This document shows, piece by piece, positions 23,901 to 62,411 of a stretch of DNA of 64,000 nt. A program made the position numbers and the translations under genes. Positions within the stretch are counted from its first letter, which is position 1. Each line of letters starts with the position of its first letter. The DNA is from Candidatus Kaiserbacteria bacterium (GTDB lineage Bacteria; Patescibacteriota; Minisyncoccia; Phycocordibacterales; UBA2100): contig JACPLC010000002.1 in the NCBI GenBank assembly GCA_016186695.1, positions 31,335 to 95,334 of the forward strand. Reading direction: 5' to 3'. The notes under the pieces were generated by a model, which saw nothing but the letters and a program-made list of their open reading frames with translations, was not told the origin of the DNA and searched no databases.

Positions 23901-24043
23901 AAAATTTATCGTGCGTACCCGGTTAGTACAATTTCGAATAATTCCTGCTGTGGCTCTACCTGCGAATGTTGCGCCGCCATGAGAGTGCCATTTTTTATTG
24001 CTGTCAGCTGTTGAATGTTCATACGAAGCGATTCGAAATTGTC

Positions 24044-34707: not shown

Positions 34708-34776
34708 GAAAGATCTTTCTACGCGCGCGAGTATATAACGACTTCTCGAGCCGTGATTTGAGAAAATCGAGCCCAT

Positions 34777-40073: not shown

Positions 40074-40094
40074 AGAGATGTGGTGGAGGCAAGT

Positions 40095-44467: not shown

Positions 44468-45514
44468 GTGCGATGCATGCGAAAAAGGAATACACGTAAC
44501 GTGACCTCTGGCAGCCTTTCAAGGCTCTTCAAAGGCAAGGTAATCCTCATAACGGGAGGCACGGGCTCGTTCGGTCGCGCGTGCGCGGAAGTACTTCTAA
44601 AAAAATACAATCCCAAAGTCGTGCGCATATACAGTCGCGATGAGCTGAAGCAATGGGAGATGGAGCGTGCATTCGGCGGATCAGTGAAACTACGCTTTCT
44701 CATCGGCGATGTGCGCGATGCCGGCCGCCTGAAGCGGGCGACCGAAGGTGTCGATATCCTCATTCACGCTGCCGCTCTCAAACACGTACCTGCATGCGAA
44801 TACAATCCGGTAGACGCTGTGCGCACCAACGTTGATGGCACTATCAACGTCATCAATGCCGCGCTCGACAACAACATCCCGCACGTCATCATGCTTTCGA
44901 CCGACAAAGCCGTGAACCCGACGAATATCTACGGCGCGACAAAGCTGTGCGCGGAGCGGCTCATCATCCAATCCAACAGCTACCGCGGCCCCTCACGGGC
45001 AACCCGTTTTTCCGTCGTGCGCTATGGCAATGTCTTGGGAAGTCGCGGCAGCGTGATCCCGCTTTTTCGCGAGCAGCGCGAGCGCGGCGAGGTAACGATC
45101 ACCGACGAACGTATGACGCGCTTTTGGATCACGCTGCCGCAGGCAGTTGATTTTGTTCTCTCAAGCCTCGGGTCAATGCAGGGCGGCGAGATATTCGTTC
45201 CGAAACTGCCTTCGATGCGTATTACCGACCTTGCATATGTTGTGGCACCAAAAGCAAAGCACAAGGTGATCGGGATCCGTGCCGGTGAGCGTTTGGATGA
45301 ATACCTCATGACACGGGAGGAAAGCCGCCGTGCATATGAAGATTCCGATCGTTACGTGATTGCTCCGGGCATGCATCCATGGCACTGGGATCAAAGCAGA
45401 CTGCGGGCTCTCAAGCAGGTAAAAAGGGATTTTGAATACAATTCGCGGGATAATCCGGAGGTGCTGAACAAAAGAGAATTGCAGAAGATCATCACAGACA
45501 ACCGGCTTGCATGA
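44468..45514 (+). CDS. UDP-GlcNAc 4,6-dehydratase (PseB/FlaA1/CapD family)
   Basis: ..KVILITGGTGSFGRACAEVLLKKYNPKVVRIYSRDELKQ.., ..IHAAALKHVPACEYNPVDAVRTNVDGTINV.., ..LSTDKAVNPTNIYGATK... The IYSRDE.KQ motif is typical of PseB/LegB. Confidence 0.8.
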   Translation: MRCMRKRNTRNVTSGSLSRLFKGKVILITGGTGSFGRACAEVLLKKYNPKVVRIYSRDELKQWEMERAFGGSVKLRFLIGDVRDAGRLKRATEGVDILIHAAALKHVPACEYNPVDAVRTNVDGTINVINAALDNNIPHVIMLSTDKAVNPTNIYGATKLCAERLIIQSNSYRGPSRATRFSVVRYGNVLGSRGSVIPLFREQRERGEVTITDERMTRFWITLPQAVDFVLSSLGSMQGGEIFVPKLPSMRITDLAYVVAPKAKHKVIGIRAGERLDEYLMTREESRRAYEDSDRYVIAPGMHPWHWDQSRLRALKQVKRDFEYNSRDNPEVLNKRELQKIITDNRLA

Positions 45515-46626
45515 TCCCTTATTCGAGGCAGGACATTGATGAACGTGACATAAAAGCTGTATCGCGGACGATGCGATCAGATTGGCTCACACAGGGTCCC
45601 GAGACAGAGAAGTTCGAGCGCTCTCTTGCAGGTTATTGCGGGGCGAAGTATGCAATCGCTGTGGCAAACGGAACGGCCGCGCTGCATGCAGCGTATGTTG
45701 CAGCTGGCATCAAAAAGGGCGATGAAGTGATTACGACCCCGCTGACTTTTTCTGCGACTTCGAACATGGCGCTCGCAGTAGGGGCAAAGGTAATTTTTGC
45801 AGACATCGATGAGAAAACGGGTAATCTCAATCCGGCTGAAGTGGCGCGAAAGATAACGAAACGAACGAAAGCTATCGTCGTGGTCGACTATGGAGGGAAT
45901 CCCGTAGATCTGCGTGCATTTCGCGCGCTTGCAAAAAAGCACTCACTCGTTCTTATCGAGGATGCCGCGCAGGCACTCGGCGCAACCTATCGTGGCAGGA
46001 AGATTGGCTCTGTCGCCGACATGACGACGTTCAGTTTTCATCCCGTGAAATCCATCACCACGGGCGAAGGTGGCGCAATTCTTACGGATCGAAAGGATTA
46101 TGCCGATACGCTCCGGCTTTTCCGCACGCACGGCATTCGGAAGGGAAATCCGAAACACCCCGCGTGGCATCAGGAAATGTTGCTACTCGGATTCAATTAT
46201 CGCCTTACCGATATGCAAGCGGCGCTCGGAAGTTCACAATTACGCCGGCTGAATACGTTCATCACAAAGCGTCGTGCTGCGGCATCGCGCTACTTCAAGC
46301 TTCTTAAAGGTAGTCGGCTGATTCTGCCGCCGGAGGATTCGCTTCGCTCGTCTGCTTGGCACCTTTTTCCCATACGGATTTCGAGAGGGCAGGTGAAGCG
46401 ACGCGATGAGGTGTTCGCAGGCATGCGGAGGCGCGGCATCGGCGTGCAAGTGCACCATGTGCCGGTTCACCTCCATCCATACTACCGGTCACTCGGATAC
46501 AAAAAGGGGCTGTGTCCGAAAGCGGAACAGTTTGCCGCCTCGGAGATCTCGCTCCCACTGTATCCCTCGATAACCGAGAGAGAGCAGCGATTCATCGTCA
46601 AGACGCTTTTACAATTACTCGGCTAA
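45511..46626 (+). CDS. DegT-family PLP-dependent sugar aminotransferase (PseC/LegC-like)
   Basis: ..GPETEKFERSLAGYCGAKYAIAVANGTAALHAAYVAAGIKKGDEVITTPLTFSATSN.. and ..SFHPVKSITTGEGGAILT.. (Lys-containing motif). ATGA overlap with the dehydratase. Confidence 0.8.
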   Translation: MIPYSRQDIDERDIKAVSRTMRSDWLTQGPETEKFERSLAGYCGAKYAIAVANGTAALHAAYVAAGIKKGDEVITTPLTFSATSNMALAVGAKVIFADIDEKTGNLNPAEVARKITKRTKAIVVVDYGGNPVDLRAFRALAKKHSLVLIEDAAQALGATYRGRKIGSVADMTTFSFHPVKSITTGEGGAILTDRKDYADTLRLFRTHGIRKGNPKHPAWHQEMLLLGFNYRLTDMQAALGSSQLRRLNTFITKRRAAASRYFKLLKGSRLILPPEDSLRSSAWHLFPIRISRGQVKRRDEVFAGMRRRGIGVQVHHVPVHLHPYYRSLGYKKGLCPKAEQFAASEISLPLYPSITEREQRFIVKTLLQLLG

Positions 46627-46642
46627 AGCGTACTGTGAGTCT

Positions 46643-47980
46643 ATGGGAAAAAAGTTTCAAAAAGCGTTGCGCGATGGGCGTGGCCAGCGTCTCTGGAGAA
46701 AAGCAAAGACACTGATCCCAGGGGGCAATCAGCTTCTCTCAAAACGTGCAGAAATGTTCCTTCCGGAGCATTGGCCGGCGTATTATTCGAGAGCAAAAGG
46801 CGCGTACATCTGGGATCTCGATGGACGCCGATATACCGATATGTCCATCATGGGTGTCGGCGCGAATATTCTCGGGTATGGCGATCCGGACGTTGATCGC
46901 GCAGCGATAGACGCAGTGAAGCGCAGTCCGATGAGCACCCTGAATGCTCCCGAAGAAGTTGAGCTTGCGGAAGAACTCTGCAGGATACATCCGTGGGCGG
47001 ACATGGTGCGGTATGCGCGAACCGGTGGGGAATCCATGGCTGTCGCAGTACGCATTGCGCGCGCTCACACAAGACGTGACATCATCGCATTCTGCGGATA
47101 TCACGGATGGAGCGATTGGTATCTGGCCACGAATCTCGAGCGGAAGAATGCACTGGCCGGGCACCTTCTAGCAGGGCTTGAACCAAAAGGCGTACCGCAC
47201 GGACTTACCGGCACGATACTTCCGTTCCGCTATAACAGGCTCGAAGAACTGGAACGGATAGTGAAAAAGCACCCGACACTTGCGGCTATTGTCATGGAGC
47301 CGATACGCAATGTCGAGCCGGAAAAAGGGTTTCTGCAGAAGGTGCGGAAGATCGCGGACAAGGCGGGTGCCGTTCTCATTTTTGATGAAATAACCATCGG
47401 GTGGCGTCTTGTACACGGCGGTGCTCATCTCAAATACGGGGTCAACCCTGATATCGCAGTCTTCGGCAAAGCGCTCTCGAATGGCTATCCAATGGCTGCC
47501 ATCATCGGTCGCCGAAAGATCATGCAGTCGGCGCAGGATTCTTTTATCTCGAGTACCTATTGGACCGATCGTATCGGGCCCGCAACGACTCTCGCGGCGC
47601 TCCGTAAAATGAGAAAGGTCAAACTGCCGCAACAGCTTGCGCGAGTGGGGAAAGAGGTGCGACGCATCTGGCTAAGAGCTGCGAAAAAGCATGGACTCCC
47701 GATACATATAAACGGTGTTCTTCCGCTTTCGCACTTCTCATTTGAAGGAGCTGACGCGCAGGCAGCAAAAACACTTTTTACGCAGGAGATGCTGAGGCGT
47801 GGGTTTCTTGCAACCGACTCGCTGTATGCTTCGCTCGCACATACGCCGGCAATACTCACGCAATACGCGAAAGCCGTTGATACGGTCTTTGGCGTAATTG
47901 CGGCGGCAAGAAAGAAAGGTGGAGTCAAAAAGGCACTCAAGGGCCCCGTTGCCCACACCGGTTTTCAACGTCTCAATTAG
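46643..47980 (+). CDS. Class-III aminotransferase (glutamate-1-semialdehyde 2,1-aminomutase-like)
   Basis: 445 aa; ..LIFDEITIGWRLVHGGAHLKYGVNPDIAVFGKALSNGYPMAAIIGRR.. (PLP-Lys motif of HemL-like enzymes). Confidence 0.75.
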   Translation: MGKKFQKALRDGRGQRLWRKAKTLIPGGNQLLSKRAEMFLPEHWPAYYSRAKGAYIWDLDGRRYTDMSIMGVGANILGYGDPDVDRAAIDAVKRSPMSTLNAPEEVELAEELCRIHPWADMVRYARTGGESMAVAVRIARAHTRRDIIAFCGYHGWSDWYLATNLERKNALAGHLLAGLEPKGVPHGLTGTILPFRYNRLEELERIVKKHPTLAAIVMEPIRNVEPEKGFLQKVRKIADKAGAVLIFDEITIGWRLVHGGAHLKYGVNPDIAVFGKALSNGYPMAAIIGRRKIMQSAQDSFISSTYWTDRIGPATTLAALRKMRKVKLPQQLARVGKEVRRIWLRAAKKHGLPIHINGVLPLSHFSFEGADAQAAKTLFTQEMLRRGFLATDSLYASLAHTPAILTQYAKAVDTVFGVIAAARKKGGVKKALKGPVAHTGFQRLN

Positions 47981-48132
47981 GCTTGTTTTAAGGCCTTTGC
48001 TCGGAGGTGTCACACGCTGAGGGTCGCGTCCGCATGTGCTCACGCGGCGCTCCCGCTCGGCGCCTTCGCGCCTCCGCGAAGACCCTCACGACGCAATACC
48101 TCCTCGCTGCCGGAACGAGTTTCAAACGTGTG
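47981..48132. terminator. GC-rich structured intergenic region between convergent genes (nested inverted repeats); candidate bidirectional terminator or small structured RNA
   Basis: Inverted repeats read directly: tgagggtc (48018-25) / gaccctca (48081-88); cggaggtg (48002-09) / cgcctccg (48069-76, one G-U); ggcgc (48046-50) / gcgcc (48060-64). Confidence 0.3.
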
Positions 48133-48975
48133 CTAGCGTGGAATGAGCATGACGAGTCCGCCGACAATGAGGAGGAGAAGGCCGGCTTTCAGCCAGAAAT
48201 ACCGCTCGTGGAAATAGAGTTTGCCGGAGAGAAGCGCAAAGAGAACCGCGAAACTGCGCATCGCTGCCGCGATGACTGATGGGGGCGCGAATAGGTAGGC
48301 GAACGAATTGGCAATGTGCGCCAAGCCGGAGCTGAAGCTTTGTGCAAAGAACACGCTTCGTGCAAGAAAACGTAAAGGATTCTCGCGGGCGATGAATCGG
48401 GCGGCTACGAAGAAATACACGAGAAGGATCATCATGATAATGCCCTGTTCAGCCTCCACGGAATTGAAGTGCGAGATATCGTATTTGTAGAGGGAAATGG
48501 TCACCGAAGCATTTACTGCGCCGATGAGAAGGAACGAGAGGCCGCGCACCGTGTGTCTCTCATAGAAGAGCAGTGTCGAGACGGCGGCGAGTATGAGAGC
48601 CATACCGAGTACCTGCAGAGACGAGAGCGGATAGCCGAGCATGAGGTCAATGACAAGAAGCAGGGGGATCGTCAGTGATTTTACGAATCCAAAGTCAGCT
48701 CGGGAGGCTTCGATGATGCCGCGTGTCGTTACATACGCCTGCAGTATCTCGAGGATCGCGCGGGGGATAAATGTCGGAAGTGACGCGAGCGAAAAGACAA
48801 AACTGTCCCGAGCCATACCCAGGATGACGATAAAGAGCGTTCCGAAGAAAAGGCTGACGAAGCTAAGCGTGTAGACACTTGCCACTCTGTCGTGCCCTTC
48901 CTTTTTCCCGATCGACTCCGAGATCTCGGCAAAGAAGTTGCCAACGCCTGCGAGAAGAATACCGAACATAATCAA
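48133..48975 (-). CDS. DMT-superfamily (EamA-like) membrane transporter
   Basis: 280 aa with about 10 TM helices in two similar halves (..LSFVSLFFGTLFIVILG.. / ..ALILAAVSTLLFYE..; ..GIIMMILLVYFFVAARF.. / ..LLLLIVGGLVMLIP..). Confidence 0.5.
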   Translation of the reverse strand: MIMFGILLAGVGNFFAEISESIGKKEGHDRVASVYTLSFVSLFFGTLFIVILGMARDSFVFSLASLPTFIPRAILEILQAYVTTRGIIEASRADFGFVKSLTIPLLLVIDLMLGYPLSSLQVLGMALILAAVSTLLFYERHTVRGLSFLLIGAVNASVTISLYKYDISHFNSVEAEQGIIMMILLVYFFVAARFIARENPLRFLARSVFFAQSFSSGLAHIANSFAYLFAPPSVIAAAMRSFAVLFALLSGKLYFHERYFWLKAGLLLLIVGGLVMLIPR

Positions 48976-49047
48976 GCTGAAATTCTACTACCGGGCATAG
49001 GTATTACTGTAGCAGAGTTTCTTTAGCGGGCCCCCACGATATATAGT

Positions 49048-49812
49048 GTGACGATGACCGGCGCTATCATTCAGGCCCGTATGAGCTCGACCCGACTTCC
49101 CGGCAAAGTCATGCTGCCGCTTTCGGGTGAGCCGGTCTTGTACCATGTGGTCGAGCGGACGAAGCGCTCGCGAGGCGCTGATGAGGTCATTGTTGCAACG
49201 ACGGTTGAACGTGAGGACGATACGATTGCCGAATTTTGCCAGAAACGCGGCTATGTATGCTTTCGCGGTTCGCGTGACGATGTGCTTGGCCGCTTTCTCG
49301 AGGCCGCACGAGCGTCGAAGCTCGACACGATCGTGCGGATCACGAGCGACTGCCCGTTGATCGATCCGGACATCATCGATGAGACTATTCGCGCATATGA
49401 GCGGGAGTCTTGCGACTACCTGAGCAACGTCGGTCCGGGCGAACGTACATTTCCCCGCGGCCTCGATTGCGAAGTCTTTTCATTCGAGGCACTCTCGCGC
49501 GCGAACACTGAAGCTCGCGAGGAGTACGAGCGGGAGCACGTGACACCCTTTATGCACGAGAACAAAAAAGGTTCGTTCCGGATCGGTCCTCAAATTATGG
49601 CGTCGGGACCGTACGCGCGGCCGCAGTACAGGCTTACACTTGATTATCCGGAGGATTATCAGCTTTTCCAGCACCTCTTCGAGCGTTTTTATCGCGCCGG
49701 CGAAATCATATCCGTGCCGGAGGTCATAGCGTATCTCGACGAGCACCCCGAGATTGTTTCTATCAACGCGGCATACGAGGCAGAGTATCCACGACAGGGA
49801 ATACGCAGGTAA
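49048..49812 (+). CDS. Nonulosonic-acid cytidylyltransferase (PseF/SpsF-type acylneuraminate cytidylyltransferase family)
   Basis: MTMTGAIIQARMSSTRLPGKVMLPLSGEPVLYHVVER.. (cf. aiIqARmgStRLPgKvl); ..IVRITSDCPLIDPDIID.. Confidence 0.75.
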   Translation: MTMTGAIIQARMSSTRLPGKVMLPLSGEPVLYHVVERTKRSRGADEVIVATTVEREDDTIAEFCQKRGYVCFRGSRDDVLGRFLEAARASKLDTIVRITSDCPLIDPDIIDETIRAYERESCDYLSNVGPGERTFPRGLDCEVFSFEALSRANTEAREEYEREHVTPFMHENKKGSFRIGPQIMASGPYARPQYRLTLDYPEDYQLFQHLFERFYRAGEIISVPEVIAYLDEHPEIVSINAAYEAEYPRQGIRR

Positions 49813-49815
49813 CTT

Positions 49816-50499
49816 ATGGTGCAAGCATCGATCATCATACGCGCATACAATGCCGAAGCGACGATCGCCCGCGCACTTGAGAGCGTGTTAAAACAAGACG
49901 TTTCGTATACATACGAGATCGTCGTTGTTGATGATGGATCTCAAGACCGCACTGTGTCTATTGCGAATGAGTTCCTGCGCGAGAACGTGCGCTTGATAGA
50001 GCAGGGCAATCATGGAGTCTCATCTGCCGCGAACACGGGATTCTCCGCTGCGAGAGGAAAAGCCATACTCCTTCTCGATGCCGATGATGAGTTATTGCCG
50101 TCCGTAGCTCTAGGACTTGAGGCTCTTATATCATCACCCGCGGATTATGTGTATGGTGATTACATCGAAGAGTATCGCGGAGAAACGAGCCGCGTCCATG
50201 CGTCGGATCCCTTTAAGGTGCCGGCGGGTGCCGTCATCTGGCGTCGCGAGCGCCTTGTCGATGCAGGAGGATTCAAGAGCGAAACAGTGTTCCCTGAATA
50301 CGAGGTCTTACTCAAGATGTGGGATATCTGGAAAGGAATACACGTACCGGAGCCGTTTTTCGTCTATCATCGAACGGACACCTCTATCACGGCAGATAAG
50401 GAGCGTATTGCGGAGTCTATCCGGCTCTTGAAGCAAAAATTTCCGGCGCGGAGCAAAGAGATCGACCTGATACGAAACTACGATCCGCTCGCGCTATAA
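49816..50499 (+). CDS. Glycosyltransferase family 2
   Basis: MVQASIIIRAYNAEATIARALESVLKQDVSYTYEIVVVDDGSQDRTVSIANEF..LDADDEL (GT-A DxD-type). Confidence 0.7.
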   Translation: MVQASIIIRAYNAEATIARALESVLKQDVSYTYEIVVVDDGSQDRTVSIANEFLRENVRLIEQGNHGVSSAANTGFSAARGKAILLLDADDELLPSVALGLEALISSPADYVYGDYIEEYRGETSRVHASDPFKVPAGAVIWRRERLVDAGGFKSETVFPEYEVLLKMWDIWKGIHVPEPFFVYHRTDTSITADKERIAESIRLLKQKFPARSKEIDLIRNYDPLAL

Positions 50500-50527
50500 G
50501 ACGTGATGTGTATATACTGCAAGCGCC

Positions 50528-51187
50528 ATGAAAAAGAAACGACTGGTCATCACCGTTCTCATCGATAACCCGAAGAGCTGGTTTGTGCCACACGGGCGGG
50601 AGCTTGTCCGACGGCTGCAAAAACGAGGGCATCGAGCGTATTTGGTGCATGCCATGAACGGTCTCAAAAAAGGCGACTGCGCTTTTTTTCTAAGCTGCGA
50701 GAAAATCGTTCCTGCCCGTGTGCGCTCGCGCAACGCGCACAATATCGTCATTCACGGGAGCGCGCTGCCCAAAGGCAAGGGTATGTCGCCACTCACATGG
50801 CAGGTCGTGGAAGGGAAGAAGAAGATCCCGCACACAGTATTCGAGGCGGCCGACACGATCGACAGCGGCGTCGTCTACCACAGAGGTACACTGAAACTCG
50901 AAGGGCACGAGCTTCTCGATGAAATGCACGACAAACAGGGCGCTCTCATCATCTCACTCGCCCTGCATTTCATAGACTCATATCCGCCAAAAAAAGGAAC
51001 GCCGCAGCGAGGGCATCAAACACTGTATCGCCGCCGCCGGCCCGAAGACAGCGAGCTTGATCCCTCGCGGCCACTATCAGAGCAGTTCAACCTACTGCGC
51101 GTAGTCGATAACGAGAAGTACCCAGCATTCTTCAGGCACAGGGGTCACACGTATGTCCTAAAGATATACAAGAGAACACAACTATGA
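50528..51187 (+). CDS. Formyltransferase catalytic domain protein (Fmt/ArnA-N/PurN-like), probable sugar N-formyltransferase
   Basis: ..NIVIHGSALPKGKGMSPLTWQVVEG.. (SLLPxxRG motif with catalytic His) ..FEAADTIDSGVVYH.. (Asp of the N/H/D triad). 219 aa, only the N-terminal catalytic domain. Confidence 0.7.
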   Translation: MKKKRLVITVLIDNPKSWFVPHGRELVRRLQKRGHRAYLVHAMNGLKKGDCAFFLSCEKIVPARVRSRNAHNIVIHGSALPKGKGMSPLTWQVVEGKKKIPHTVFEAADTIDSGVVYHRGTLKLEGHELLDEMHDKQGALIISLALHFIDSYPPKKGTPQRGHQTLYRRRRPEDSELDPSRPLSEQFNLLRVVDNEKYPAFFRHRGHTYVLKIYKRTQL

Positions 51188-52239: not shown

Positions 52240-52374
52240 GAGACAGCGCGTAACAACGGGGAGAGACGGGGGCACGCACAGTGAACTGAACGCGAGTTAA
52301 ACTGTGTCCGTCCCTAAATCCCCATAGTTGTGGAAGACTCGTCTTGATCAAGCTGCACCATATATAATGATTTC

Positions 52375-53586
52375 ATGCGCTCTGGACATCTCCGTCTTCT
52401 AACGCTCGCATTGGCCATCGCACTATTCGGCTCGTTGCAAGCGTCTATCGTTTTTGCGCAAGACGTGAGCACCACTACCGCGTCGAACACGGAGCTCCAA
52501 GCGATTATTCGGCAGCTGCAGGCACAAATCAGCTCACTGCAGGAACAGTTGCTCGCATTGCGCCGCGAGGTAGCCGTTGTGAAAGCCGAAGTCGCACTCA
52601 CGAAAACACTGCGAAGGGGCAACACCGGAGAGGAAGTGAAGAGGTTGCAAGAACTCTTGGCTTCAGATCCCGATGTGTATCCAGAGCAATTGATCACCGG
52701 CTATTTCGGTGCCCGTACCGAATTCGCAGTCAAAAGATTTCAAGAAAAGTATCAACAAGATATCCTGGCACCCTTCGGTCTGACCGAGGGCACTGGTATT
52801 GTGGGAGAAGTGACACGGCAGAAGCTGAATGCCGCCGCAGCGCCCGCGAGTTCATCGGAGCTGGCGATTACTGCAAGGGCGATCGCAGGAAATGAAATCT
52901 CGGCAACACCCCCAAGTGCTGCGATACCCACTTCCTCCACGACCGTAACGACCTCTGAAACGGTCGCGGTCTCTCCTGTCGCGACTCAATCACAGTCGTC
53001 CACGCCTCCACCGGGTACCGCCCTTCCACCTCCCGTGACGACGCCAGCGCCGTCTCCAGCGCCTGCACCAGCTCCGACACCAACGCCTGAACCGGTGCCA
53101 CCACCACCTCCTCCACCACCCGCCTTGCCCACCTCCTCTTGTAGCGGCGGAAGCGAACGCATACCAGGGTTACCAAATTGTCTAATGCCGGAAAATCTTC
53201 CAGGAACATCATGGAATGAGGTCGACAACGCAACAGGCGCGGTCATAAACGGCGCCATATGCAGCGCCTCGGTGTGCGGGCGAAACGGCGAATGGAGAAC
53301 GCAGCTCAATTTCCCGAGCGGTTCTACATACATTCAGACGCCGTACAATGTCGCATATTGGGGGCGATACTTCGTTAACGGCGTTTGGGAAACCGCTGCC
53401 GGAGTCATACTCCAACCCGGAGAAATTCCTCCACCACCTCCTTCTGACACATCCGATTCGGGAGCAGACACGGCAACAGGTACACAAAGTACTCGGACAT
53501 CTTCGTTCGCTTCAACGAGTCAAGTCGCGAGTGTGCTCGAAGCTATTCGGCAGCTCCTGAACCAATTGCTTCAGCTTCTCCGGTGA
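52375..53586 (+). CDS. Secreted protein: coiled coil, peptidoglycan-binding (PG_binding_1-like) domain, poly-Pro/Thr linker and a Cys-containing C-terminal domain
   Basis: Signal MRSGHLRLLTLALAIALFGSLQASIVFA; ..LRRGNTGEEVKRLQELLASDPDVYPEQLITGYFGARTEFAVKRFQEKY.. (PGBD pattern); ..PPVTTPAPSPAPAPAPTPTPEPVPPPPPPPPALP.. Confidence 0.55.
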   Translation: MRSGHLRLLTLALAIALFGSLQASIVFAQDVSTTTASNTELQAIIRQLQAQISSLQEQLLALRREVAVVKAEVALTKTLRRGNTGEEVKRLQELLASDPDVYPEQLITGYFGARTEFAVKRFQEKYQQDILAPFGLTEGTGIVGEVTRQKLNAAAAPASSSELAITARAIAGNEISATPPSAAIPTSSTTVTTSETVAVSPVATQSQSSTPPPGTALPPPVTTPAPSPAPAPAPTPTPEPVPPPPPPPPALPTSSCSGGSERIPGLPNCLMPENLPGTSWNEVDNATGAVINGAICSASVCGRNGEWRTQLNFPSGSTYIQTPYNVAYWGRYFVNGVWETAAGVILQPGEIPPPPPSDTSDSGADTATGTQSTRTSSFASTSQVASVLEAIRQLLNQLLQLLR

Positions 53587-53626
53587 TAGTTGGACTTATT
53601 AATATTCTGGGTTGAGGTTTTTCGCG

Positions 53627-54580
53627 CTACGCGGATCGGTAGGCGCCGCGCGGGGCCTTTTTGGCTCCCTTGTATCCGGTGAGTTTGGGCATATCGACAC
53701 CTCGTGCGAGTGGAAGGATCACGAACATATCCTTGAGCTCCACCGCACTCGCAGATTCGTCTTCGGTCATTAAGGTCTCGTGCAATTTCTCGCCGGCTCT
53801 CAAGCCGATCATTTTGATGCTCATGCGCTTTCCCTTCCCGTGCTTCCTGATGAATTCTTTGGCAACATCGATAACACGCTTCGACGGTTTCATCTTCAAC
53901 ACGAATATTTCTCCGCCCTGCATATGTTCGAGCGCCCTGAAAACGAGTTCGACTGCCTCAGACAGTTCCATAAAGAAACGTGTCGCCTTCGCGTCGGTCA
54001 CCGTCACCGCTTTGTCTTCCCGGATCTGTTTTTCCCAGAGTTCGATGACAGAGCCGCGCGAGCCAAGCACGTTCCCAAACCGAACTGAAGCAAAGCGCGT
54101 GCGATGCGGCCCGACTGTCGCGTTTGCGGCTGTCATGAGGCGCTCCATCATCAACTTCGAGGCGCCCAAGACCGAGCCAGGATCGGCAGCTTTGTCGGTC
54201 GAGATGGCGAGCACTTTTTCGAGATCGTTGCGGAGTGCGACTTCGATAATATTCTGCGTGCCGACAATGTTCGTTTTTACCGCCTCGAAGGGATTGTACT
54301 CGCACACCGGCACGTGCTTGAGGGCAGCGGCGTGGAAGCAAATGTCAACGCCCTGAAAGGCAAGGTCGGTGCGCTCCTTGTCGCGAATGTCGCCGATGAG
54401 GTATCGCAGTCGTTTGTCTTCGGGCAGCTCATTTTTGAGCTCATGCTGCTTGTGCTCGTCCCTGCTGTAGATGCGAATTTGTTTTGCTTTCGTTTTCAAT
54501 AATTGCCGTACGATCTCTGAGCCGATCGAGCCGGTCCCGCCTGTCACGATAACGATCTTGCCGTCCGCCGTGTGCTTCAT
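53627..54580 (-). CDS. NDP-HexNAc 4,6-dehydratase (PseB/LegB/CapD family), second copy
   Basis: ..KIVIVTGGTGSIGSEIVRQLLKTKAKQIRIYSRDEHKQ..FHAAALKHVPVCEYNPFEAVKTNIVGTQNI..ISTDKAADPGSVLGASK.. Start MKHTADGK at 54580 (the maximal ORF reaches 54697). Confidence 0.8.
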   Translation of the reverse strand: MKHTADGKIVIVTGGTGSIGSEIVRQLLKTKAKQIRIYSRDEHKQHELKNELPEDKRLRYLIGDIRDKERTDLAFQGVDICFHAAALKHVPVCEYNPFEAVKTNIVGTQNIIEVALRNDLEKVLAISTDKAADPGSVLGASKLMMERLMTAANATVGPHRTRFASVRFGNVLGSRGSVIELWEKQIREDKAVTVTDAKATRFFMELSEAVELVFRALEHMQGGEIFVLKMKPSKRVIDVAKEFIRKHGKGKRMSIKMIGLRAGEKLHETLMTEDESASAVELKDMFVILPLARGVDMPKLTGYKGAKKAPRGAYRSA

Positions 54581-55692
54581 AGGTTGGTAAGGGCATCTTT
54601 CAGTATTTTCGCGATGTATGCAACGTCTCGCTTCGTGAGACCGAGGTAGAAGGGGAGCGCCAGAGTCTTCCCGCTCACGTCTTCGGAAATCGGACATTCG
54701 CCTGCACGGTGTCCGCGAGAGCGGTAGAACTCGAAGAGATGGATGGAAGGCAGGTAGGGTTTCGCGTGGACGCCCCGCTTCTTGAGTGTCTCTATCAGCC
54801 TGTTGCGGTCCACGCGCTTGTCTTTAAGGGCGACAACGTACACGAACCACGTGTGTGTCGCGTTCTTTGCAGGAGTGGGAAGCTCGAGGAGATCGCTGAG
54901 CGGCGCAAGCGCTTCAGCATACGTGTGTGCAAGTTCTTTCCGCTTTCGAATGAGGAAGCGGATATTCTCAAGCTGGGCAAGGCCAAGCGCGGCACTCATC
55001 TCATCAAGCCGGTAATTGTAGCCGAGGTATTTGTGATCGAGCCACTGCATATTCGGTGCGCGTCCTTGGTTGCGCAGCGAGCGACAAAGTTCTGTGACAC
55101 GGTCATCGTCGGTCACGATCATGCCTCCTTCGCCGGTCGTCATCTGCTTGTTGGCGTAGAACGCAAACACTGCGGATTGCCCGAAGGTACCGGCCTTTTT
55201 CCCTTTGTACGTGGAAAGAAGCGACTCACAAGCGTCTTCGACAACGACGAGGTTGTGCTTGTTCGCAATCGCCAAGACCTCATCCATCTTCGCGGGCTGC
55301 CCAAAAATGTGCACCGGCATTATGGCGCGTGTTTTCGGCGTGATCTTCCTCTCGATATTTTTCGGGTCGATGTTGTAGCTCTTCGGATCAATATCGGCGA
55401 ATACGGGCGTTGCGCCCACATACAGAATGGCATTTGCCGATGCGACGAAGGAAAAGGGGGAGGTAATCACTTCGTCGCCGGGCTTTATGCCCGCGGCGAT
55501 AAGCGCGATGTGAAGGCCCGCCGTGCCGCTCGATACGGCAACGGCGTGTTTTGTACCGAGTGTTTTTGCGAACTTCTTTTCGAATTTCTCGATGAACGGC
55601 CCGATGGAGAGTCTGCCGGAGCGAAGCGCCTGCAATACGTAGCGCTCCTCCTTTTTCCCAATGTATGGCCGCGCCGTGGGGTAGAACTTCAT
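54577..55692 (-). CDS. DegT-family PLP-dependent sugar aminotransferase (LegC/PseC-like), second copy
   Basis: MKFYPTARPYIGKKEERYVLQALRSGRLSIGPFIEKFEKKFAKTLGTKHAVAVSSGTAGLHIAL..FSFVASAN... ATGA overlap with the dehydratase start. Confidence 0.8.
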   Translation of the reverse strand: MKFYPTARPYIGKKEERYVLQALRSGRLSIGPFIEKFEKKFAKTLGTKHAVAVSSGTAGLHIALIAAGIKPGDEVITSPFSFVASANAILYVGATPVFADIDPKSYNIDPKNIERKITPKTRAIMPVHIFGQPAKMDEVLAIANKHNLVVVEDACESLLSTYKGKKAGTFGQSAVFAFYANKQMTTGEGGMIVTDDDRVTELCRSLRNQGRAPNMQWLDHKYLGYNYRLDEMSAALGLAQLENIRFLIRKRKELAHTYAEALAPLSDLLELPTPAKNATHTWFVYVVALKDKRVDRNRLIETLKKRGVHAKPYLPSIHLFEFYRSRGHRAGECPISEDVSGKTLALPFYLGLTKRDVAYIAKILKDALTNL

Positions 55693-55699
55693 TGTTAAA

Positions 55700-56110
55700 T
55701 CATTTCTGTTCAAGTTTTTTAACAACTTTTGCAGGAACTCCAAAAGCGACGGTGAACGCCGGAATGTCACTCTTTACATAACTATGTGCGCCGATCAACG
55801 CGCCCTCGCCAATGGTGACACTGGGCATGATGCTGCAATGCGTACCGATCTTCGCCCCCTTACCGATGACGACGCGTCCATGGGTTCCGTCTATCGTGCT
55901 CACGCTGTAAATGGCGCAGTGAGAGCCTATCTGTACCTCATCGTGGATCTCTACGCCATACTGCGGTTGAATATATGTCCCATAACCGATATCGGTGCGT
56001 ACCCCAAGCTTCAATTTATCAATGTGTTTCGGATGCACCTGCCAGCCATACATGGTCGAGCCATCGGCTCGGATTTCCGGCGCTTCCCAGTGCTCAAATC
56101 GATCGCTCAT
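55700..56110 (-). CDS. Hexapeptide-repeat (LbH) sugar N-acetyltransferase (PglD/LegH/PseH-like)
   Basis: 136 aa; tandem hexapeptide repeats ..IGSHCAIYSVSTIDGTHGRVVIGKGAKIGTHCSIMPSVTIGEGALIGAHSYV.. Confidence 0.75.
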   Translation of the reverse strand: MSDRFEHWEAPEIRADGSTMYGWQVHPKHIDKLKLGVRTDIGYGTYIQPQYGVEIHDEVQIGSHCAIYSVSTIDGTHGRVVIGKGAKIGTHCSIMPSVTIGEGALIGAHSYVKSDIPAFTVAFGVPAKVVKKLEQK

Positions 56111-56125
56111 ACGGAAGGGAGTCTA

Positions 56126-57283
56126 TCAAACTCGGAAGCGTTTATCGAGAAGGTCGCGTTTCCGAAGCTGCCGTGCAAGGGTAGTGGCTATGCGTTTTCC
56201 GGCGCCGGCTTTTCCGTAGGGCGAGCGGAAGGGTCGTCCTTTTTGTTTTTTCTTTAGTGCGATCCCGCGAGAGATTGCGGCAGTGATTTTTACGGGGTCA
56301 TAGGGTGTGTCGATAATGCCTGCTCCGCGTTCACGGCCGCGCTCTCGGTTGCCGATATTCACTGTTGGCGTGCCAAGGTAACCCGTCTCGATAATGCCGG
56401 CGGAGGAATTGCCGACGAGCACGTCGCTTCCCGCAATTGCGCTCATAAAGAGGAGTCGCGGGAGTGATTTGAAGACGTGGTACCCTTTTTTCCTCAAATC
56501 GCGGATGGTGCGTACGAAAATAGCACTCCCCGTGTCCGTATTTGGATAGATGGCGACCTTTTCGTGGTGAGGAAATGCATTGAGTGCTTGTATGGTCGAG
56601 GAGAGCTGTTTTTGCAGTGGCTCTTTGTCGAAGGAGCTCGGATGCTGAAGTACCGTTAGCCATGGTCGATTCCGATCAAGCCGGAGGACTTTCGCCACCT
56701 CGGCTCGCGGAAAACGAGTGCTGCGGAGGACCATGTCCACGACGACGCTCCCGAGGGAAAAAATTCTGCGGCGTTCTTCTCCGAGGGCGCTTATGCGTGC
56801 GGCACTCTTTTTCGTTCCGGGGAAGTGGAGGTGGGCAAGTTTTGTTATTGCGTGGCGGATGCCCTCATCAACGCCGGGGCCCGTGACGTCGCCGCCATGA
56901 ATATGCGCAAGGGGAATATTCAAGTGATTTGCAACGATCGCCGCGGCAAGCGGCTCATCTCGATCTCCAAGCACGAGGATGCAGTCAGGGCGATGTTTAA
57001 GACAGTACGCCCGGATCCCCGCGATCTCTTTTGTAAGAGCCTCAAGCATGTCACTCTCCTCTCTGACAGGCACCACGCAGTCGATCTTGTAGCCGTCACG
57101 GACAATCTCTCTTTTTGTCAGCCCGTACGATTTTAGCGTGTGCATACCCGTCACGAGGAGACGGAGCACGAGAGCCGGATGAGCGGCAATGGCATCCATG
57201 GTTGAGCGCAAAAGACCGTATTCGGCACGTGTTCCTGTCACTACCAGTATGTTTTTTCGTTTGTTCATTCGATCATGTCCCAT
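56126..57283 (-). CDS. UDP-N-acetylglucosamine 2-epimerase, hydrolysing (NeuC/LegG-like)
   Basis: ..KNILVVTGTRAEYGLLRSTMDAIAAHPALVLRLLVTGMHT..; ..LAHIHGGDVTGPGVDEGIRHAITKLAHLHF.. The probable start MNKRKNIL at 57268 abuts the NeuB stop. Confidence 0.8.
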   Translation of the reverse strand: MGHDRMNKRKNILVVTGTRAEYGLLRSTMDAIAAHPALVLRLLVTGMHTLKSYGLTKREIVRDGYKIDCVVPVREESDMLEALTKEIAGIRAYCLKHRPDCILVLGDRDEPLAAAIVANHLNIPLAHIHGGDVTGPGVDEGIRHAITKLAHLHFPGTKKSAARISALGEERRRIFSLGSVVVDMVLRSTRFPRAEVAKVLRLDRNRPWLTVLQHPSSFDKEPLQKQLSSTIQALNAFPHHEKVAIYPNTDTGSAIFVRTIRDLRKKGYHVFKSLPRLLFMSAIAGSDVLVGNSSAGIIETGYLGTPTVNIGNRERGRERGAGIIDTPYDPVKITAAISRGIALKKKQKGRPFRSPYGKAGAGKRIATTLARQLRKRDLLDKRFRV

Positions 57284-58335
57284 GAAAGGCTGCTACCCTG
57301 CAGGATACCCACCTTTGCGTGTTTGCCGAGTACATTGTTCCATTCTTTTGGCAAAAGCAAGCCTTCGGGCCGTGCGATGAAAATGTTTGCGTCACTGAGT
57401 GTTTCGCCTTTCCTGATGTCTCTTCGTGCTGCGATGCCTTTTCGTACGAGCCGCTTCGTGGCGAGTTCGTCAGCCGTTGGCTCCTTTTTGGCATTTCCCA
57501 GTATTTCTTCGGGAACGGTGAGCGAGCTGGGGATGGTTTCGCGTACGCGTCTTATAAGCTTAGTGAGTTCAGCGGGCTCGAGTGAGGCATTATGGTCGGG
57601 GCCGGGAAGCGTCTTATCCATCGTGAAGTGCTTCTCGATGAGCACGGCACCGAGCGAGACGGCATAGATGCTCGCGTCCACGCCCTCGGTATGGTCGGAA
57701 AAGCCGACGGGCACGTTGAATGTATCGCGCAACGTTTCAATAGCACGGAGGTTGGCATGCGCCGGTGGACACGGGTACTCCGACGTGCACTGCAGAAGGA
57801 CTACCTCTTTTTTTACCGGGATCGACGCGAGCGTTTCGCGTATTTCCTCGAGCGTTGCCATTCCCGTGGAGAGCAGGATGGGCTTCCCAAATCCGGCGAT
57901 ATGTTCGAGAAGGGGGATGTTGGTGAGGTCGCCCGAGGAGATTTTGTATGCAGGGAGGTCGAGCGAGTGTAAAAAATCGGCATCGGGAATGCTGAAAGGT
58001 GTTGCGAGGAATTCGATGCCTCTTTCGTCGGCATATGCTTTCAGCGTCCTGAACTCGTCGTGCGAAAGCGCGAGCTTGCGAAGCATTGCAGCCTGCGACT
58101 CGGAGATACCCGTATTCTTTGCCTGATAGGCGGCCTGCGGAGCTTCTTCGGTAATGATCTCGTCGACGGTGAACGCCTGAAACTTTACCGCATCCGCACC
58201 GGCCTCCCGTGCGGCATCGATCAACAGCTTGCCGAGCTCGACGTCGCCGTTGTGATTCACGCCCGCTTCGGCGATAACGTATGGGCTGCCCGGTTCGAGC
58301 GCGCGTTGCCCAATTCGCATACTCAAAGAGTCCAA
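57265..58335 (-). CDS. Nonulosonic acid synthase (NeuB/LegI family), second copy
   Basis: ..PYVIAEAGVNHNGDVELGKLLIDAAREAGADAVKFQAF.. and ..GFSDHTEG... C-terminal SAF-like domain. Confidence 0.85.
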   Translation of the reverse strand: MDSLSMRIGQRALEPGSPYVIAEAGVNHNGDVELGKLLIDAAREAGADAVKFQAFTVDEIITEEAPQAAYQAKNTGISESQAAMLRKLALSHDEFRTLKAYADERGIEFLATPFSIPDADFLHSLDLPAYKISSGDLTNIPLLEHIAGFGKPILLSTGMATLEEIRETLASIPVKKEVVLLQCTSEYPCPPAHANLRAIETLRDTFNVPVGFSDHTEGVDASIYAVSLGAVLIEKHFTMDKTLPGPDHNASLEPAELTKLIRRVRETIPSSLTVPEEILGNAKKEPTADELATKRLVRKGIAARRDIRKGETLSDANIFIARPEGLLLPKEWNNVLGKHAKVGILQGSSLSWDMIE

Positions 58336-59069
58336 CCGCCGTCGACGACGATGTTCTGGCCCGTTATGTGTTTCGCGGTGTCGGAGAGAAGGAACACGAC
58401 GGCTCCTGATACGTCGCTTGGCTTGAGCAGTCCGTTGCCAATGGCGAGGTGCTGTGAATATTTCTCCACGAACGCCGCTGGTTGTCCGTCGGCAACCCCG
58501 CCCGGAGATACGGCATTGAAGCGGACATTACGACTGCCGTACATTCGCGCGAAATAGCGTGCAAGTGCGATGACGGCGGCTTTTGCGGCGGCATACTCGG
58601 GGGGGACCCCGATCATTTTCGTGTTCTCGTAAAGTTCCGCGCGCGGCGCAGCAAGTCCATAGATGGAGCCGAGAAATACGATGGAGCCGGCCTTCATCCG
58701 TGGCGCGAAATATTTTGCGGTGCTCATACAGCCGCCGACGTGCATGTCGAGATTTTGGAGCATGTCCTCGACGGTCCCGTCTTCGAATTTCGCGCCAAAC
58801 GTTTTTGTTTTTGGATATGCTGCGTTCACGACGCCGTCTACGGAGCCGACCCGCTTCACGAGCTCTTCTACCGACGAGGGGGAGGTGATGTCGACATGCT
58901 CGAAACGTGCCGACAACGTGTCGGCAAGCGCGCCTCCTCTCTTTTTATCCACATCTGCAATGACGACCGAGGCGTTCTCTGCGGCGCATGCGCGGGCGAA
59001 TTCGCTTCCGAGGAGCCCGGCGCCGATGATGACGATCGTTTTTCCTTCGAGGAGAGCCATGGTGGACAC
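58323..59069 (-). CDS. Short-chain dehydrogenase/reductase (SDR)
   Basis: GKTIVIIGAGLLGSEF (Rossmann TGxxxGxG-like), ..YAAAKAAVIALARY.. (YxxxK). Confidence 0.75.
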   Translation of the reverse strand: MSTMALLEGKTIVIIGAGLLGSEFARACAAENASVVIADVDKKRGGALADTLSARFEHVDITSPSSVEELVKRVGSVDGVVNAAYPKTKTFGAKFEDGTVEDMLQNLDMHVGGCMSTAKYFAPRMKAGSIVFLGSIYGLAAPRAELYENTKMIGVPPEYAAAKAAVIALARYFARMYGSRNVRFNAVSPGGVADGQPAAFVEKYSQHLAIGNGLLKPSDVSGAVVFLLSDTAKHITGQNIVVDGGWTL

Positions 59070-59080
59070 GATAGTATACT

Positions 59081-59809
59081 TTAGGAGAAACCGCGAATTC
59101 GCTTCTCCACCTCTTTGCGATTCCCGAAAATAACCTCTCCAACGACAAAATCCTCCGGCTCGTCGAGATCGATCGCGCGCCAGCGCGGGATCTCGTAGCC
59201 CACGAGTTTTCCGGGGAAGAATGTTTTTTCAGCGATAAGCTTTTTGGCGTCGACAAGGTAGAGCATAGAGCCGTCGAACCGGAAGTATGCGGGAAGCTGC
59301 TGCCTGTTGGGCGAGGTGAGCATCTCGGGATTCTCGAAGTGAATAACATTGCCTTTGTCTTTCGTCATCAGCACGTTCTCACTCCGGCATACGGAGACGA
59401 GTGAGTCCGCCCGCGAATCGTTAAACAATCTCACTGCACTCTCGATATCCTCCGACGTCCGCAATGGGCTCGTTGGCTGCAGCAAGAGGATGTGTGTCGG
59501 TTCATATCCATCTTTTCGTAATTGTTCAAGGAGATGAATAACAGCATCGACAACTGTGCTCGCATCCGTAGCAAGTTCCGCGGGACGCAGGAATGGAACT
59601 TCGGCTCCATATTTTTGGGCTATCCCCGCTATTTCTTGGGAATCAGTAGAAACTACGATCCGATCAAGCGAAGGGGCAGCTTTCGCAACTTCGATCGTGT
59701 ACGCGATGAGTGGTTTACCGGCGAACATCCGGATGTTTTTGTTCGGAATACCGCGGGAACCGGCACGTGCAGGAATTATTGCAAGTATGTTCGCGTCTTT
59801 TCGGGCCAT
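59081..59809 (-). CDS. CMP-nonulosonic acid synthetase (NeuA/LegF acylneuraminate cytidylyltransferase family)
   Basis: ..ILAIIPARAGSRGIPNKNIRMFAGKPLIAYTIE.. (cf. NeuA aiIpARgGSKgi.gKNi). Start MARKDAN at 59809 (the maximal ORF reaches 59881). Confidence 0.8.
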   Translation of the reverse strand: MARKDANILAIIPARAGSRGIPNKNIRMFAGKPLIAYTIEVAKAAPSLDRIVVSTDSQEIAGIAQKYGAEVPFLRPAELATDASTVVDAVIHLLEQLRKDGYEPTHILLLQPTSPLRTSEDIESAVRLFNDSRADSLVSVCRSENVLMTKDKGNVIHFENPEMLTSPNRQQLPAYFRFDGSMLYLVDAKKLIAEKTFFPGKLVGYEIPRWRAIDLDEPEDFVVGEVIFGNRKEVEKRIRGFS

Positions 59810-62388: not shown

Positions 62389-62411
62389 GTCGCGCGATTC
62401 TAGCTCGACCT

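Follow-up and report, generated by a model that had tools for sequence, protein, structure and literature searches.

The analyses presented here indicate that a 64-kb stretch of DNA from Candidatus Kaiserbacteria (the window, i.e. the whole stretch that was analysed) probably encodes two independent pathways to CMP-nonulosonates, each provided with a transferase of the KpsS/KpsC superfamily, within one glycan island of a tiny-genome groundwater bacterium of the candidate phyla radiation (CPR). The first array of genes (44468-52239, plus strand) is of the pseudaminic acid (Pse) type, and for the second (53627-59809, minus strand) a legionaminic acid (Leg) type is favoured but not proven. Two cassettes had been claimed at these positions by the first-pass annotation, and all the genes it named were found as intact open reading frames (ORFs) at or near the coordinates it gave; what its inventory missed were an EamA-like gene, a PG_binding_1 gene, an ATP-binding cassette (ABC) transporter and two PF05159 genes (Table 1). 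Profiles with NCBIfam curated equivalog cut-offs and Pfam profiles were run over essentially all substantial ORFs of the window. Both arrays are intact and tightly packed, each with one NeuB-type synthase, and every ORF spans the full length of its model, so that neither array is pseudogenised. Junctions within the arrays range from -19 to +31 nt and include four ATGA-type overlaps, the exception being one opposite-strand gene in array 1, as would fit a pair of operon-like units converging on the gene of a PG-binding protein. The longest ORFs of three array-2 genes extend beyond the probable starts, and a scan for promoters and terminators was uninformative, its counts lying at the level of shuffled sequence.

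In particular, we have established that PseB, PseC and PseI of array 1 exceed the curated cut-offs of their equivalog models with near full-length coverage, in agreement with the Pse type first proposed for this array. PseB matches Helicobacter pylori FlaA1 (2GN4) with 347 bits and carries the motif TDK...YGATK, its orthologues likewise keeping the catalytic Tyr (TDK...YGxTK), and synthase 1 scores 318 bits against Campylobacter jejuni PseI (8H2C) versus 176 bits against Neisseria meningitidis NeuB. The cytidylyltransferase of array 1 is of the SpsF/COG1861 type and gave no match to the PseF model TIGR03584. Since an enzyme of this type is the sole cytidylyltransferase of many compact Pse clusters, with the gene content PseB-PseC-cytidylyltransferase-Fmt-PseI in loci L072, L038 and L092 (relatives from our searches are numbered in this way), it is probably the CMP-Pse synthetase that would act at the PseF step.

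The PseH step appears to be filled in another way. No GNAT or TIGR03585 match was found in any scanned ORF of the 64-kb window, and next to PseI lies the gene of a formyltransferase-fold (Fmt-like) protein belonging to the subfamily of 1ZGH (52 bits), the only solved member, itself uncharacterised. Throughout the family alignment a V-x-H-x-S-x-L-P motif and an Asp are invariant (His76 and Asp112). A scan of GTDB species genomes returned 292 Fmt-like loci, from CPR, DPANN, Bacteroidota, Firmicutes, Proteobacteria and Cyanobacteria, of which the best 80 (L013-L092) were used for counts: a PseI-type synthase lies within 9 kb in 61/80, PseC in 51/80 and PseB in 39/80. In three genomes a single ORF of 563-580 aa joins the Fmt-like domain to PseG (L063:8924-10657, L071:8966-10657 and L092:8915-10657), and the partner in L092 is a bona fide PseG (TIGR03590, 343.8 bits); in other organisms PseG is often fused to PseH. 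Moreover, a pair of dehydratase and DegT genes adjoins the Fmt-like gene in L008 and L009, where no NeuB-type synthase lies nearby. The fusions to PseG, the context of PseI, PseC and PseB and the adjacency to dehydratase and DegT genes together place the Fmt-like protein at the step of amino-sugar N-acylation, the PseH step, and it is most likely an N-acyl (formyl) transferase acting in place of PseH. The predicted product of array 1 would be 5-N-acetyl-7-N-formyl-pseudaminic acid (Pse5Ac7Fo) or a derivative of it. Among natural Pse derivatives Pse5Ac7Fo is already known (PMC11040635), and in Halorubrum a formyltransferase gene within a Leg cluster has been linked to 5-N-formyl-Leg (PMC6137143).

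In databases the Fmt-like family goes under the name methionyl-tRNA formyltransferase, probably in error. Of the Fmt-like loci, 41/80 (for example L072:11693-13061, L042:10638-12006 and L014:8631-9998) contain in addition a divergent second formyltransferase gene coupled with one for a PIG-L/LmbE-type deacetylase, a pair that the window lacks; in L072 this pair follows the PseB-PseC-cytidylyltransferase-Fmt-PseI genes and is accompanied by a genuine PseG (TIGR03590, 256.5 bits against a cut-off of 153.55). The pair suggests removal of an N-acetyl group followed by re-acylation, as in a di-N-formyl Pse.

For array 2, the gene content corresponds to the six steps of the Leg pathways, namely 4,6-dehydratase, 4-aminotransferase, N-acetyltransferase, hydrolysing 2-epimerase, NeuB-type synthase and CMP-synthetase, and all seven genes are closely packed, the gaps between them being -19 to +15 nt. 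The 2-epimerase and synthase 2 pass their cut-offs, and profile placement separates the two synthases of the window, synthase 1 being of the PseI type and synthase 2 of the NeuB/LegI type: synthase 2 falls below the PseI cut-off (268.7 bits against 340.25) and scores 193 bits with Bacillus subtilis SpsE, 181 with NeuB and 160 with PseI (8H2C). The non-CPR proteins closest to it, about 50% identical, are encoded in Leg clusters of the Campylobacter type, which hold a LegB-like short SDR (short-chain dehydrogenase), DegT, a PglD_N-LbH acetyltransferase, Epimerase_2, a PtmE-like CBS-NTP_transferase, a cytidylyltransferase and a further SDR; the PtmE-like CBS-nucleotidyltransferase is a hallmark of Leg synthesis. 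The best structural match of the 2-epimerase is the Acinetobacter baumannii GDP/UDP-N,N'-diacetylbacillosamine (diNAcBac) 2-epimerase 5ZLR (201 bits, versus 154 for human GNE). The PtmA-like SDR of array 2 is kept between the cytidylyltransferase and NeuB in L001, L005 and L094, and homologues of PtmA are standard in the Leg clusters of Plesiomonas, Vibrio and Campylobacter and are required in Plesiomonas (PMC4481668).

The dehydratase of array 2, DH2, is distinct from PseB in that the motif reads TDK...LGASK, the Leu being kept in four orthologues; orthologues in three other lineages have it as well. Tyrosine-less dehydratases with Met, such as PglF and CapE, make up a separate mechanistic subgroup, and the Leu-containing motif of DH2 resembles these Met-type enzymes. 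DH2 scores 277 bits with FlaA1, 272 with Bacillus thuringiensis CapD and 174 with PglF, and 61.9 bits under the LegB model TIGR04180 (cut-off 475). For the aminotransferase of array 2 (AT2) the LegC model scores highest, with that of PseC close behind (Table 1). The LbH protein matches the NeuD/PglB/VioB model TIGR03570 over the C-terminal half of the model only (60.7 bits, cut-off 160.8), and its orthologues in L001 and L002 are of like length (134-136 aa). Considering these data together, we think it fairly probable that array 2 makes a Leg-type 5,7-diamino sugar. Of the Leg logic that had been proposed for it, the six-step gene set stands, and the kinship of the synthase to Campylobacter-type Leg clusters agrees with it; the dehydratase, the aminotransferase and the LbH protein fall short of their cut-offs.

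Both arrays recur in relatives, together and apart. The two-array layout recurs from end to end, with both PF05159 genes and the ABC transporter gene, on an independent metagenomic contig of 56 kb (L005): the transporter gene is followed by a PF05159 gene, PseB, PseC, the class-III aminotransferase, an opposite-strand gene, the cytidylyltransferase, GT2, the Fmt-like gene and PseI, and the convergent array consists of dehydratase, DegT, 2-epimerase, NeuB, SDR and cytidylyltransferase genes, beyond which comes the divergent PF05159 gene. In L001 and L002/L003 it is array 2 by itself that is conserved. L004, a closer relative from the Kaiserbacteria, has retained array 1 from PseB to PseI, its Caps1 and Fmt proteins being 72-78% identical to those of the window, beside a second module that comprises a NeuB-AP_endonuc_2 fusion, an SDR, a methyltransferase and a PF05159 gene and is devoid of 2-epimerase and LbH genes. 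The fusion (L004:11715-13616, minus strand) is a 633-aa NeuB-SAF protein joined to AP_endonuc_2, a xylose-isomerase-like TIM barrel, an unusual architecture for a synthase.

The two arrays are flanked by Caps1 and Caps2, two PF05159 proteins of the KpsS/KpsC superfamily (26.5% identical over 388 aa), which are likely to be nonulosonate transferases. Caps1 carries a KEHP motif (K319-E320-H321-P322), which includes the CMP-binding HP of the superfamily and is invariant in 41 homologues, and its AlphaFold2 model (pLDDT 91) is two-domain and GT-B-like; the best Foldseek TM-scores are to KpsC, albeit low (0.31-0.43), with a weak sequence match to the solved KpsC (26 bits). A Caps1-like gene upstream of PseB is conserved in L004, L005, L048 and L052, such genes adjoin Pse clusters in several unrelated loci, and the family is widespread in Patescibacteria, where it is annotated as hypothetical only. 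Caps2 is transcribed divergently from array 2, in the same position in L001, L004 and L005, and a Caps2-like gene stays divergent even where the second module differs (L004). KpsS1, the founder of GT118 and related to PF05159, is an established retaining Pse transferase (PMC12887879). Judging from their synteny with the arrays, we propose Caps1 as a candidate for the transfer of CMP-pseudaminate and Caps2 as a candidate for the array-2 sugar. The stop of the ABC transporter gene overlaps the start of Caps1 by 4 nt, and in L004 and L005, too, this gene lies ahead of the Capsule_synth-PseB array.

We suggest that in array 1 PseB and PseC would convert UDP-GlcNAc into UDP-4-amino-4,6-dideoxy-L-AltNAc, as their equivalog scores imply, after which the Fmt-like protein, to go by its gene context and fusions, would acylate, and probably formylate, the 4-amino group instead of a GNAT-type PseH. 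UDP would then be removed by an activity other than PseG, none being present, PseI (again from its equivalog score) would join the free sugar with phosphoenolpyruvate, and the SpsF-type cytidylyltransferase would presumably yield the CMP-sugar. In array 2, the tyrosine-less dehydratase, the DegT aminotransferase and the LbH protein would produce a nucleotide-linked 2,4-diacetamido-2,4,6-trideoxyhexose, which the NeuC/LegG-type enzyme would hydrolyse and 2-epimerise and from which the NeuB/LegI-type synthase and the NeuA-type enzyme would form a CMP-legionaminic-type acid. Caps1 and Caps2 may then move both sugars to a surface glycan, and the ABC transporter may export that glycan.

Observations on both arrays weigh against this scheme. 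On the side of array 2, TIGR03568 and TIGR03569 cover Neu and Leg enzymes without separating them, and the dehydratase, the aminotransferase and the LbH protein lie below every curated cut-off; for the SDR and the cytidylyltransferase, too, the family is confirmed and every specific cut-off missed. The best structural match of the aminotransferase AT2 is GDP-perosamine synthase (291 bits, against 183 for PglE and 175 for PseC), and a GDP-mannose 4,6-dehydratase (GMD) gene lies 1.5 kb from array 2, past Caps2, so that the two may form a GDP-N-acylperosamine side pathway. Array 2 could be imagined to make N-acetylneuraminic acid (Neu5Ac) through NeuC, NeuB and NeuA, with the LbH protein as a NeuD-like O-acetyltransferase, and with the dehydratase and the aminotransferase providing a separate 4-amino-4,6-dideoxy sugar (bacillosamine or perosamine-like) for the same glycan. 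Besides the breadth of the two models, AT2 and the nearby GMD gene, this would agree with the name N-acetylneuraminate synthase that NCBI gives to P0001, a Candidatus Kaiserbacteria protein 100% identical to synthase 2, with the match of the LbH protein to the NeuD/PglB/VioB family, and with L001, where two unrelated genes stand between the NeuC-NeuB block and the LbH-DegT-dehydratase block. We nevertheless hold it to be unlikely, given the tight packing of all seven genes, the linkage that these two blocks retain in L001, L002 and L005, the PtmE-like CBS-nucleotidyltransferase and LegB-like SDR in the clusters of the nearest non-CPR relatives of synthase 2, the diNAcBac 2-epimerase as best structural match of the epimerase, and the PtmA-like SDR. 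Far less probable still is that the arrays are a diverged tandem duplication making one sugar, or that one of them is decaying. The dehydratase, DegT aminotransferase, NeuB and CTP_transf_3 classes are indeed common to both; their members, however, are 49% (dehydratases), 38% (aminotransferases), 36% (synthases) and 24% (cytidylyltransferases) identical, and the synthases fall under different equivalogs, from which we conclude that the pathways are distinct and did not arise by duplication. The 2-epimerase is found in array 2 alone and the Fmt-like gene in array 1 alone, and each array is separately conserved in other genomes. Tandem duplication and pseudogenisation, which the first-pass annotation had named as what would overturn its proposal, are thus ruled out by the identities of 24-49%, the differing equivalogs and the full-length ORFs.

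As to array 1, the window contains no PseG, and the array is therefore biochemically incomplete as read. Additionally, the Asn of the catalytic Asn-His-Asp triad is an invariant Val (Val74) in the Fmt-like family, as judged from the alignments with ArnA and within the family, and with the Asn lost formyl transfer by this protein is not assured; it is for this reason that 7-N-formylation is something we infer. Some Fmt-like homologues are, moreover, fused to other domains, to an APH-type kinase in a Peregrinibacteria genome (L040:10001-11758) and to GNAT acetyltransferases in two metagenomic proteins (P0167 and P0206), so the partners of the family vary. That PseG and PseH equivalents are absent had been noticed at the outset, and the profile scans of the window bear this out for both, as does the six-frame search described below for PseG. 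The further proposal that array 2 supplies the missing activities in trans, the LbH protein replacing PseH and the NeuC-type hydrolase replacing PseG, has in its favour just this absence and the adjacency of the arrays, co-conserved in L005. It was not supported, and we consider it improbable, because L004 keeps array 1 beside a module devoid of the NeuC-type epimerase and LbH. PseG is also missing from 15/16 CPR Pse loci with or without a second cassette, and the Fmt-like-PseG fusions found elsewhere put the Fmt-like protein, a likely substitute for PseH, at that step. NeuC-type enzymes epimerise C2 during hydrolysis and are not equivalents of PseG; the stereochemistry that they would yield is wrong for PseI.

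The lack of PseG goes beyond the window. In the window itself, no scanned ORF matched TIGR03590 or Glyco_tran_28, and a hidden Markov model (HMM) built from three verified PseG sequences found nothing at E<10 in a six-frame scan of the 64 kb. Among loci with both the Fmt-like gene and PseI, the PseG HMM detected a match within +/-10 kb in 30/42 from non-CPR bacteria, in 1/16 from CPR and in 0/3 from DPANN, which means that PseG is wanting in 15/16 CPR loci, irrespective of a second cassette, versus 12/42 of those from other bacteria. A short GT2 gene adjoins the Fmt-like gene solely in six CPR loci, and PseG occurs in 0/6 of these against 31/55 of the others (Fisher p=0.011), an anticorrelation of nominal significance. 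This comparison is confounded by taxonomy, because CPR loci are without PseG whether GT2 is present or not, and GT2 was rejected as a general substitute for PseG; that the window GT2, a full-length match to the 228-aa GT2 structure 6P61, stands in for PseG is speculative. In L048 and L052 the only unassigned gene of the locus encodes a DUF218 protein. Clustering of the unassigned ORFs in CPR Pse loci revealed no universal candidate for a PseG substitute; the families that came up repeatedly were HisH/HisF/WbuZ acetamidino genes, PIG-L deacetylase, Wzt ABC, ATP-grasp and DUF218, and PseH was not among the families of at least 7 members listed for 78 small unassigned ORFs, which makes this an upper bound. 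We put forward, as a tentative idea of rather low probability, that CPR and DPANN organisms run the Pse pathway without canonical PseG and PseH, the formyltransferase-fold enzyme with Asn replaced by Val acylating the sugar and a non-orthologous enzyme releasing UDP. Candidates for the release of UDP vary by lineage: the soluble 227-aa GT2 here and the DUF218 protein in other Patescibacteria.

Among the remaining genes of array 1, that of the class-III aminotransferase occurs together with an SpsF-type cytidylyltransferase in 23/80 Fmt-like loci and is also present in the Leg-type clusters L093 and L094. A minus-strand gene occupies in L005 the position equivalent to that of the EamA-like gene, and in L006 an EamA gene lies close to AT3, CT3 and Fmt-like genes. 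In relatives an aldo-keto reductase gene stands between the cytidylyltransferase and GT2 genes (L004:8431-9330 and L005:8443-9327), L005 adding a methyltransferase gene; in the window, where there is no such reductase, the gap measures only 3 nt (49812-49816), and the reductase was therefore cleanly lost or never gained.

Compared with the Pse pathway of C. jejuni and H. pylori, array 1 shares PseB, PseC and PseI orthologues above cut-off, a CTP_transf_3 enzyme and the operon-like arrangement. It differs in having neither a GNAT-type PseH nor a GT-B-type PseG, in the 1ZGH-like Fmt protein (Asn replaced by Val) beside PseI, in the SpsF/COG1861-type cytidylyltransferase in place of the TIGR03584 PseF, and in the additional class-III aminotransferase, GT2 and EamA-like genes. 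The Fmt-like protein has in common with sugar N-formyltransferases (the N-terminal domain of ArnA, VioF and WlaRD) the Formyl_trans_N fold, an H-x-S-L-L-P-type motif, the His and Asp, and dehydratase and DegT neighbours; unlike them it has the invariant Val for Asn, and its nearest structure, 1ZGH, is without a characterised function. Array 2 matches, in gene content and in the logic of its six predicted steps, the GDP route of C. jejuni (LegB/C/H/G/I/F) and the UDP-diNAcBac route of Legionella and Acinetobacter, and has its PtmA-like SDR in common with the clusters of Plesiomonas, Vibrio and Campylobacter (PMC4481668). In contrast to these pathways, its dehydratase is of the PseB/CapD family, not LegB or PglF, its LbH protein has only 136 aa and no PglD N-terminal domain, and the array contains no PtmE-like nucleotidyltransferase. 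With KpsS1 (A. baumannii, GT118) and the beta-Kdo transferases KpsS/KpsC (GT107) and WbbB (GT99), Caps1 and Caps2 share PF05159, KEHP, a GT-B-like model and a location beside CMP-ulosonic acid genes; the similarity of Caps1 to the solved KpsC is weak, as the bit score and TM-scores above show, and the likeness to KpsS1 is one of family and context.

Pse and Leg pathways are co-located in the flagellar glycosylation islands of C. jejuni, Clostridium botulinum and Clostridium butyricum (PMC13317340), and the arrangement of two 5,7-diamino nonulosonate pathways in one glycosylation locus is therefore not new in kind. Unlike the Campylobacter and Clostridium islands, however, the window has a CPR host, no flagellin and no Maf-type transferases, its candidates being KpsS-like PF05159 proteins, and GT4, GT-C (PMT_2) and heptose-type genes predominate in it. 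What is new here is the CPR host, a Pse variant without PseG and PseH that has a probable formyltransferase-fold substitute with an altered active site, and a PF05159 candidate paired with each array; in the library searched we found no literature linking CPR to nonulosonic acids. If the reading of a pathway free of PseG and PseH is true, it would represent a new biochemical variant of Pse synthesis, and ultrasmall episymbionts would be investing in two sialic-acid-like sugars. The systematic absence of PseG from CPR and DPANN Pse clusters and the widespread, probably mis-annotated Fmt-like family with its PseG fusions offer leads for enzymology and annotation, and Caps1 and Caps2 lengthen, as candidates, a very short list of Pse/Leg transferases. 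Nonulosonic acids bear on the charge of the surface, on phage and host recognition and on the evasion of immunity, and CPR bacteria live as obligate episymbionts and have minimal genomes. That such an organism spends at least 64 kb on an island with two such sugars suggests that surface glycans are central to attachment to, or recognition of, the host.

Table 1. Genes of the two arrays and of their surroundings, in order of position in the window, with profile scores in bits
Feature	Coordinates	Strand	Profile matches
Fused ABC transporter (transmembrane and nucleotide-binding domains, TMD-NBD), probable exporter or flippase	41207-43009	+	PF00664 + PF00005
Caps1, KpsS/KpsC-superfamily GT-B-like protein	43006-44436	+	PF05159 37.2 (cut-off 20)
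PseB, UDP-GlcNAc inverting 4,6-dehydratase	44468-45514	+	TIGR03589 447.8 (cut-off 407.75)
PseC aminotransferase	45511-46626	+	TIGR03588 468.5 (cut-off 423.5)
Class-III (GSA-aminomutase-like) aminotransferase, accessory	46643-47980	+	PF00202 154.6; PRK06209 250.7 (below cut-off 486)
EamA/DMT-like multi-pass membrane protein	48133-48975	-	PF00892 23 (below gathering score)
SpsF-type CTP_transf_3 cytidylyltransferase	49048-49812	+	PF02348 121.4
Short soluble GT2, 227 aa	49816-50499	+	PF00535 108.9
Formyltransferase-fold protein (Fmt-like)	50528-51187	+	PF00551 29.7
PseI, pseudaminic acid synthase (synthase 1)	51184-52239	+	TIGR03586 494.6 (cut-off 340.25)
PG_binding_1 secreted protein, between the arrays	52375-53586	+	PF01471 28.1
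DH2, tyrosine-less Polysacc_synt_2 4,6-dehydratase	53627-54580	-	PseB model 338.2 (below cut-off 407.75); FnlA 262.8
AT2, DegT-family sugar 4-aminotransferase	54577-55692	-	LegC family TIGR04181 317.2 (cut-off 420); PseC 308.3 (cut-off 423.5)
LbH acyltransferase, 136 aa, candidate LegH/PglD-step N-acetyltransferase	55700-56110	-	PF00132 46.2
NeuC/LegG-type hydrolysing 2-epimerase	56126-57283	-	TIGR03568 352.6 (cut-off 235.9)
NeuB/LegI-type nonulosonate synthase (synthase 2)	57265-58320	-	TIGR03569 404.4 (cut-off 399.65)
PtmA-like short-chain dehydrogenase	58323-59069	-	PRK09186 234 (cut-off 255); FlagModPtmA 155.2 (cut-off 350)
NeuA/PseF-like CTP_transf_3 cytidylyltransferase, predicted array-2 CMP-nonulosonate synthetase	59081-59809	-	PF02348 94.4; PseF model 158.4 (below cut-off 205.7)
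Caps2, second KpsS/KpsC-superfamily protein	~59841-61346 (start inferred at 59841)	+	PF05159 31.1 (cut-off 20)
GDP-mannose 4,6-dehydratase	61357-62451	-	TIGR01472 409.3 (cut-off 415)

The protein encoded between the arrays has, apart from its PG_binding_1 domain, an N-terminal coiled coil and a stretch of some 100 aa rich in Ser, Thr and Pro, and its gene is absent from the corresponding position in L004 and L005. It belongs to neither pathway and could be a substrate of glycosylation.

Finally, the profile scans show the whole 64-kb window to be a glycan-biosynthesis island, and the closest relatives of all genes examined are found in Kaiserbacteria, Parcubacteria and other Patescibacteria. 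An exact-match search with the PseI of the window returned no record. The glycosyltransferases of the window include at least eight GT4 genes, three PMT_2 (GT-C) genes and one GT9 gene, and further genes encode a third DegT aminotransferase, GDP-mannose dehydratase-type enzymes, methyltransferases, a NUDIX protein (18837-19382) and a DUF218 protein (21297-22091). The three PMT_2 proteins (6067-7629, 12320-14026 and 14020-15450) are ArnT/PMT-like membrane enzymes that may attach glycan to protein or lipid acceptors. The gene of the GT9 heptosyltransferase family, together with SIS (GmhA-like), HAD (GmhB-like), CTP_transf_like and PfkB genes (36024-37268, 39495-41167 and 22096-22878), makes up a set that resembles an ADP-heptose-type pathway; CPR bacteria are expected to have no lipopolysaccharide. 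The SIS-HAD-ABC order of the window is also kept in L004. Split genes for the alpha and beta subunits of a thiamine pyrophosphate-dependent E1 enzyme (transketolase-like) and a Zn-dependent alcohol dehydrogenase gene lie within the island (22875-26052, minus strand), and in L002 a comparable split transketolase pair adjoins the Leg-type array. The island is interrupted by the gene of a 2,383-aa RHS-repeat/SpvB/FG-GAP protein (27625-34776, minus strand), which, in the genome of an episymbiont, resembles a polymorphic toxin, with a small RHS fragment beside it (26875-27351, minus strand).

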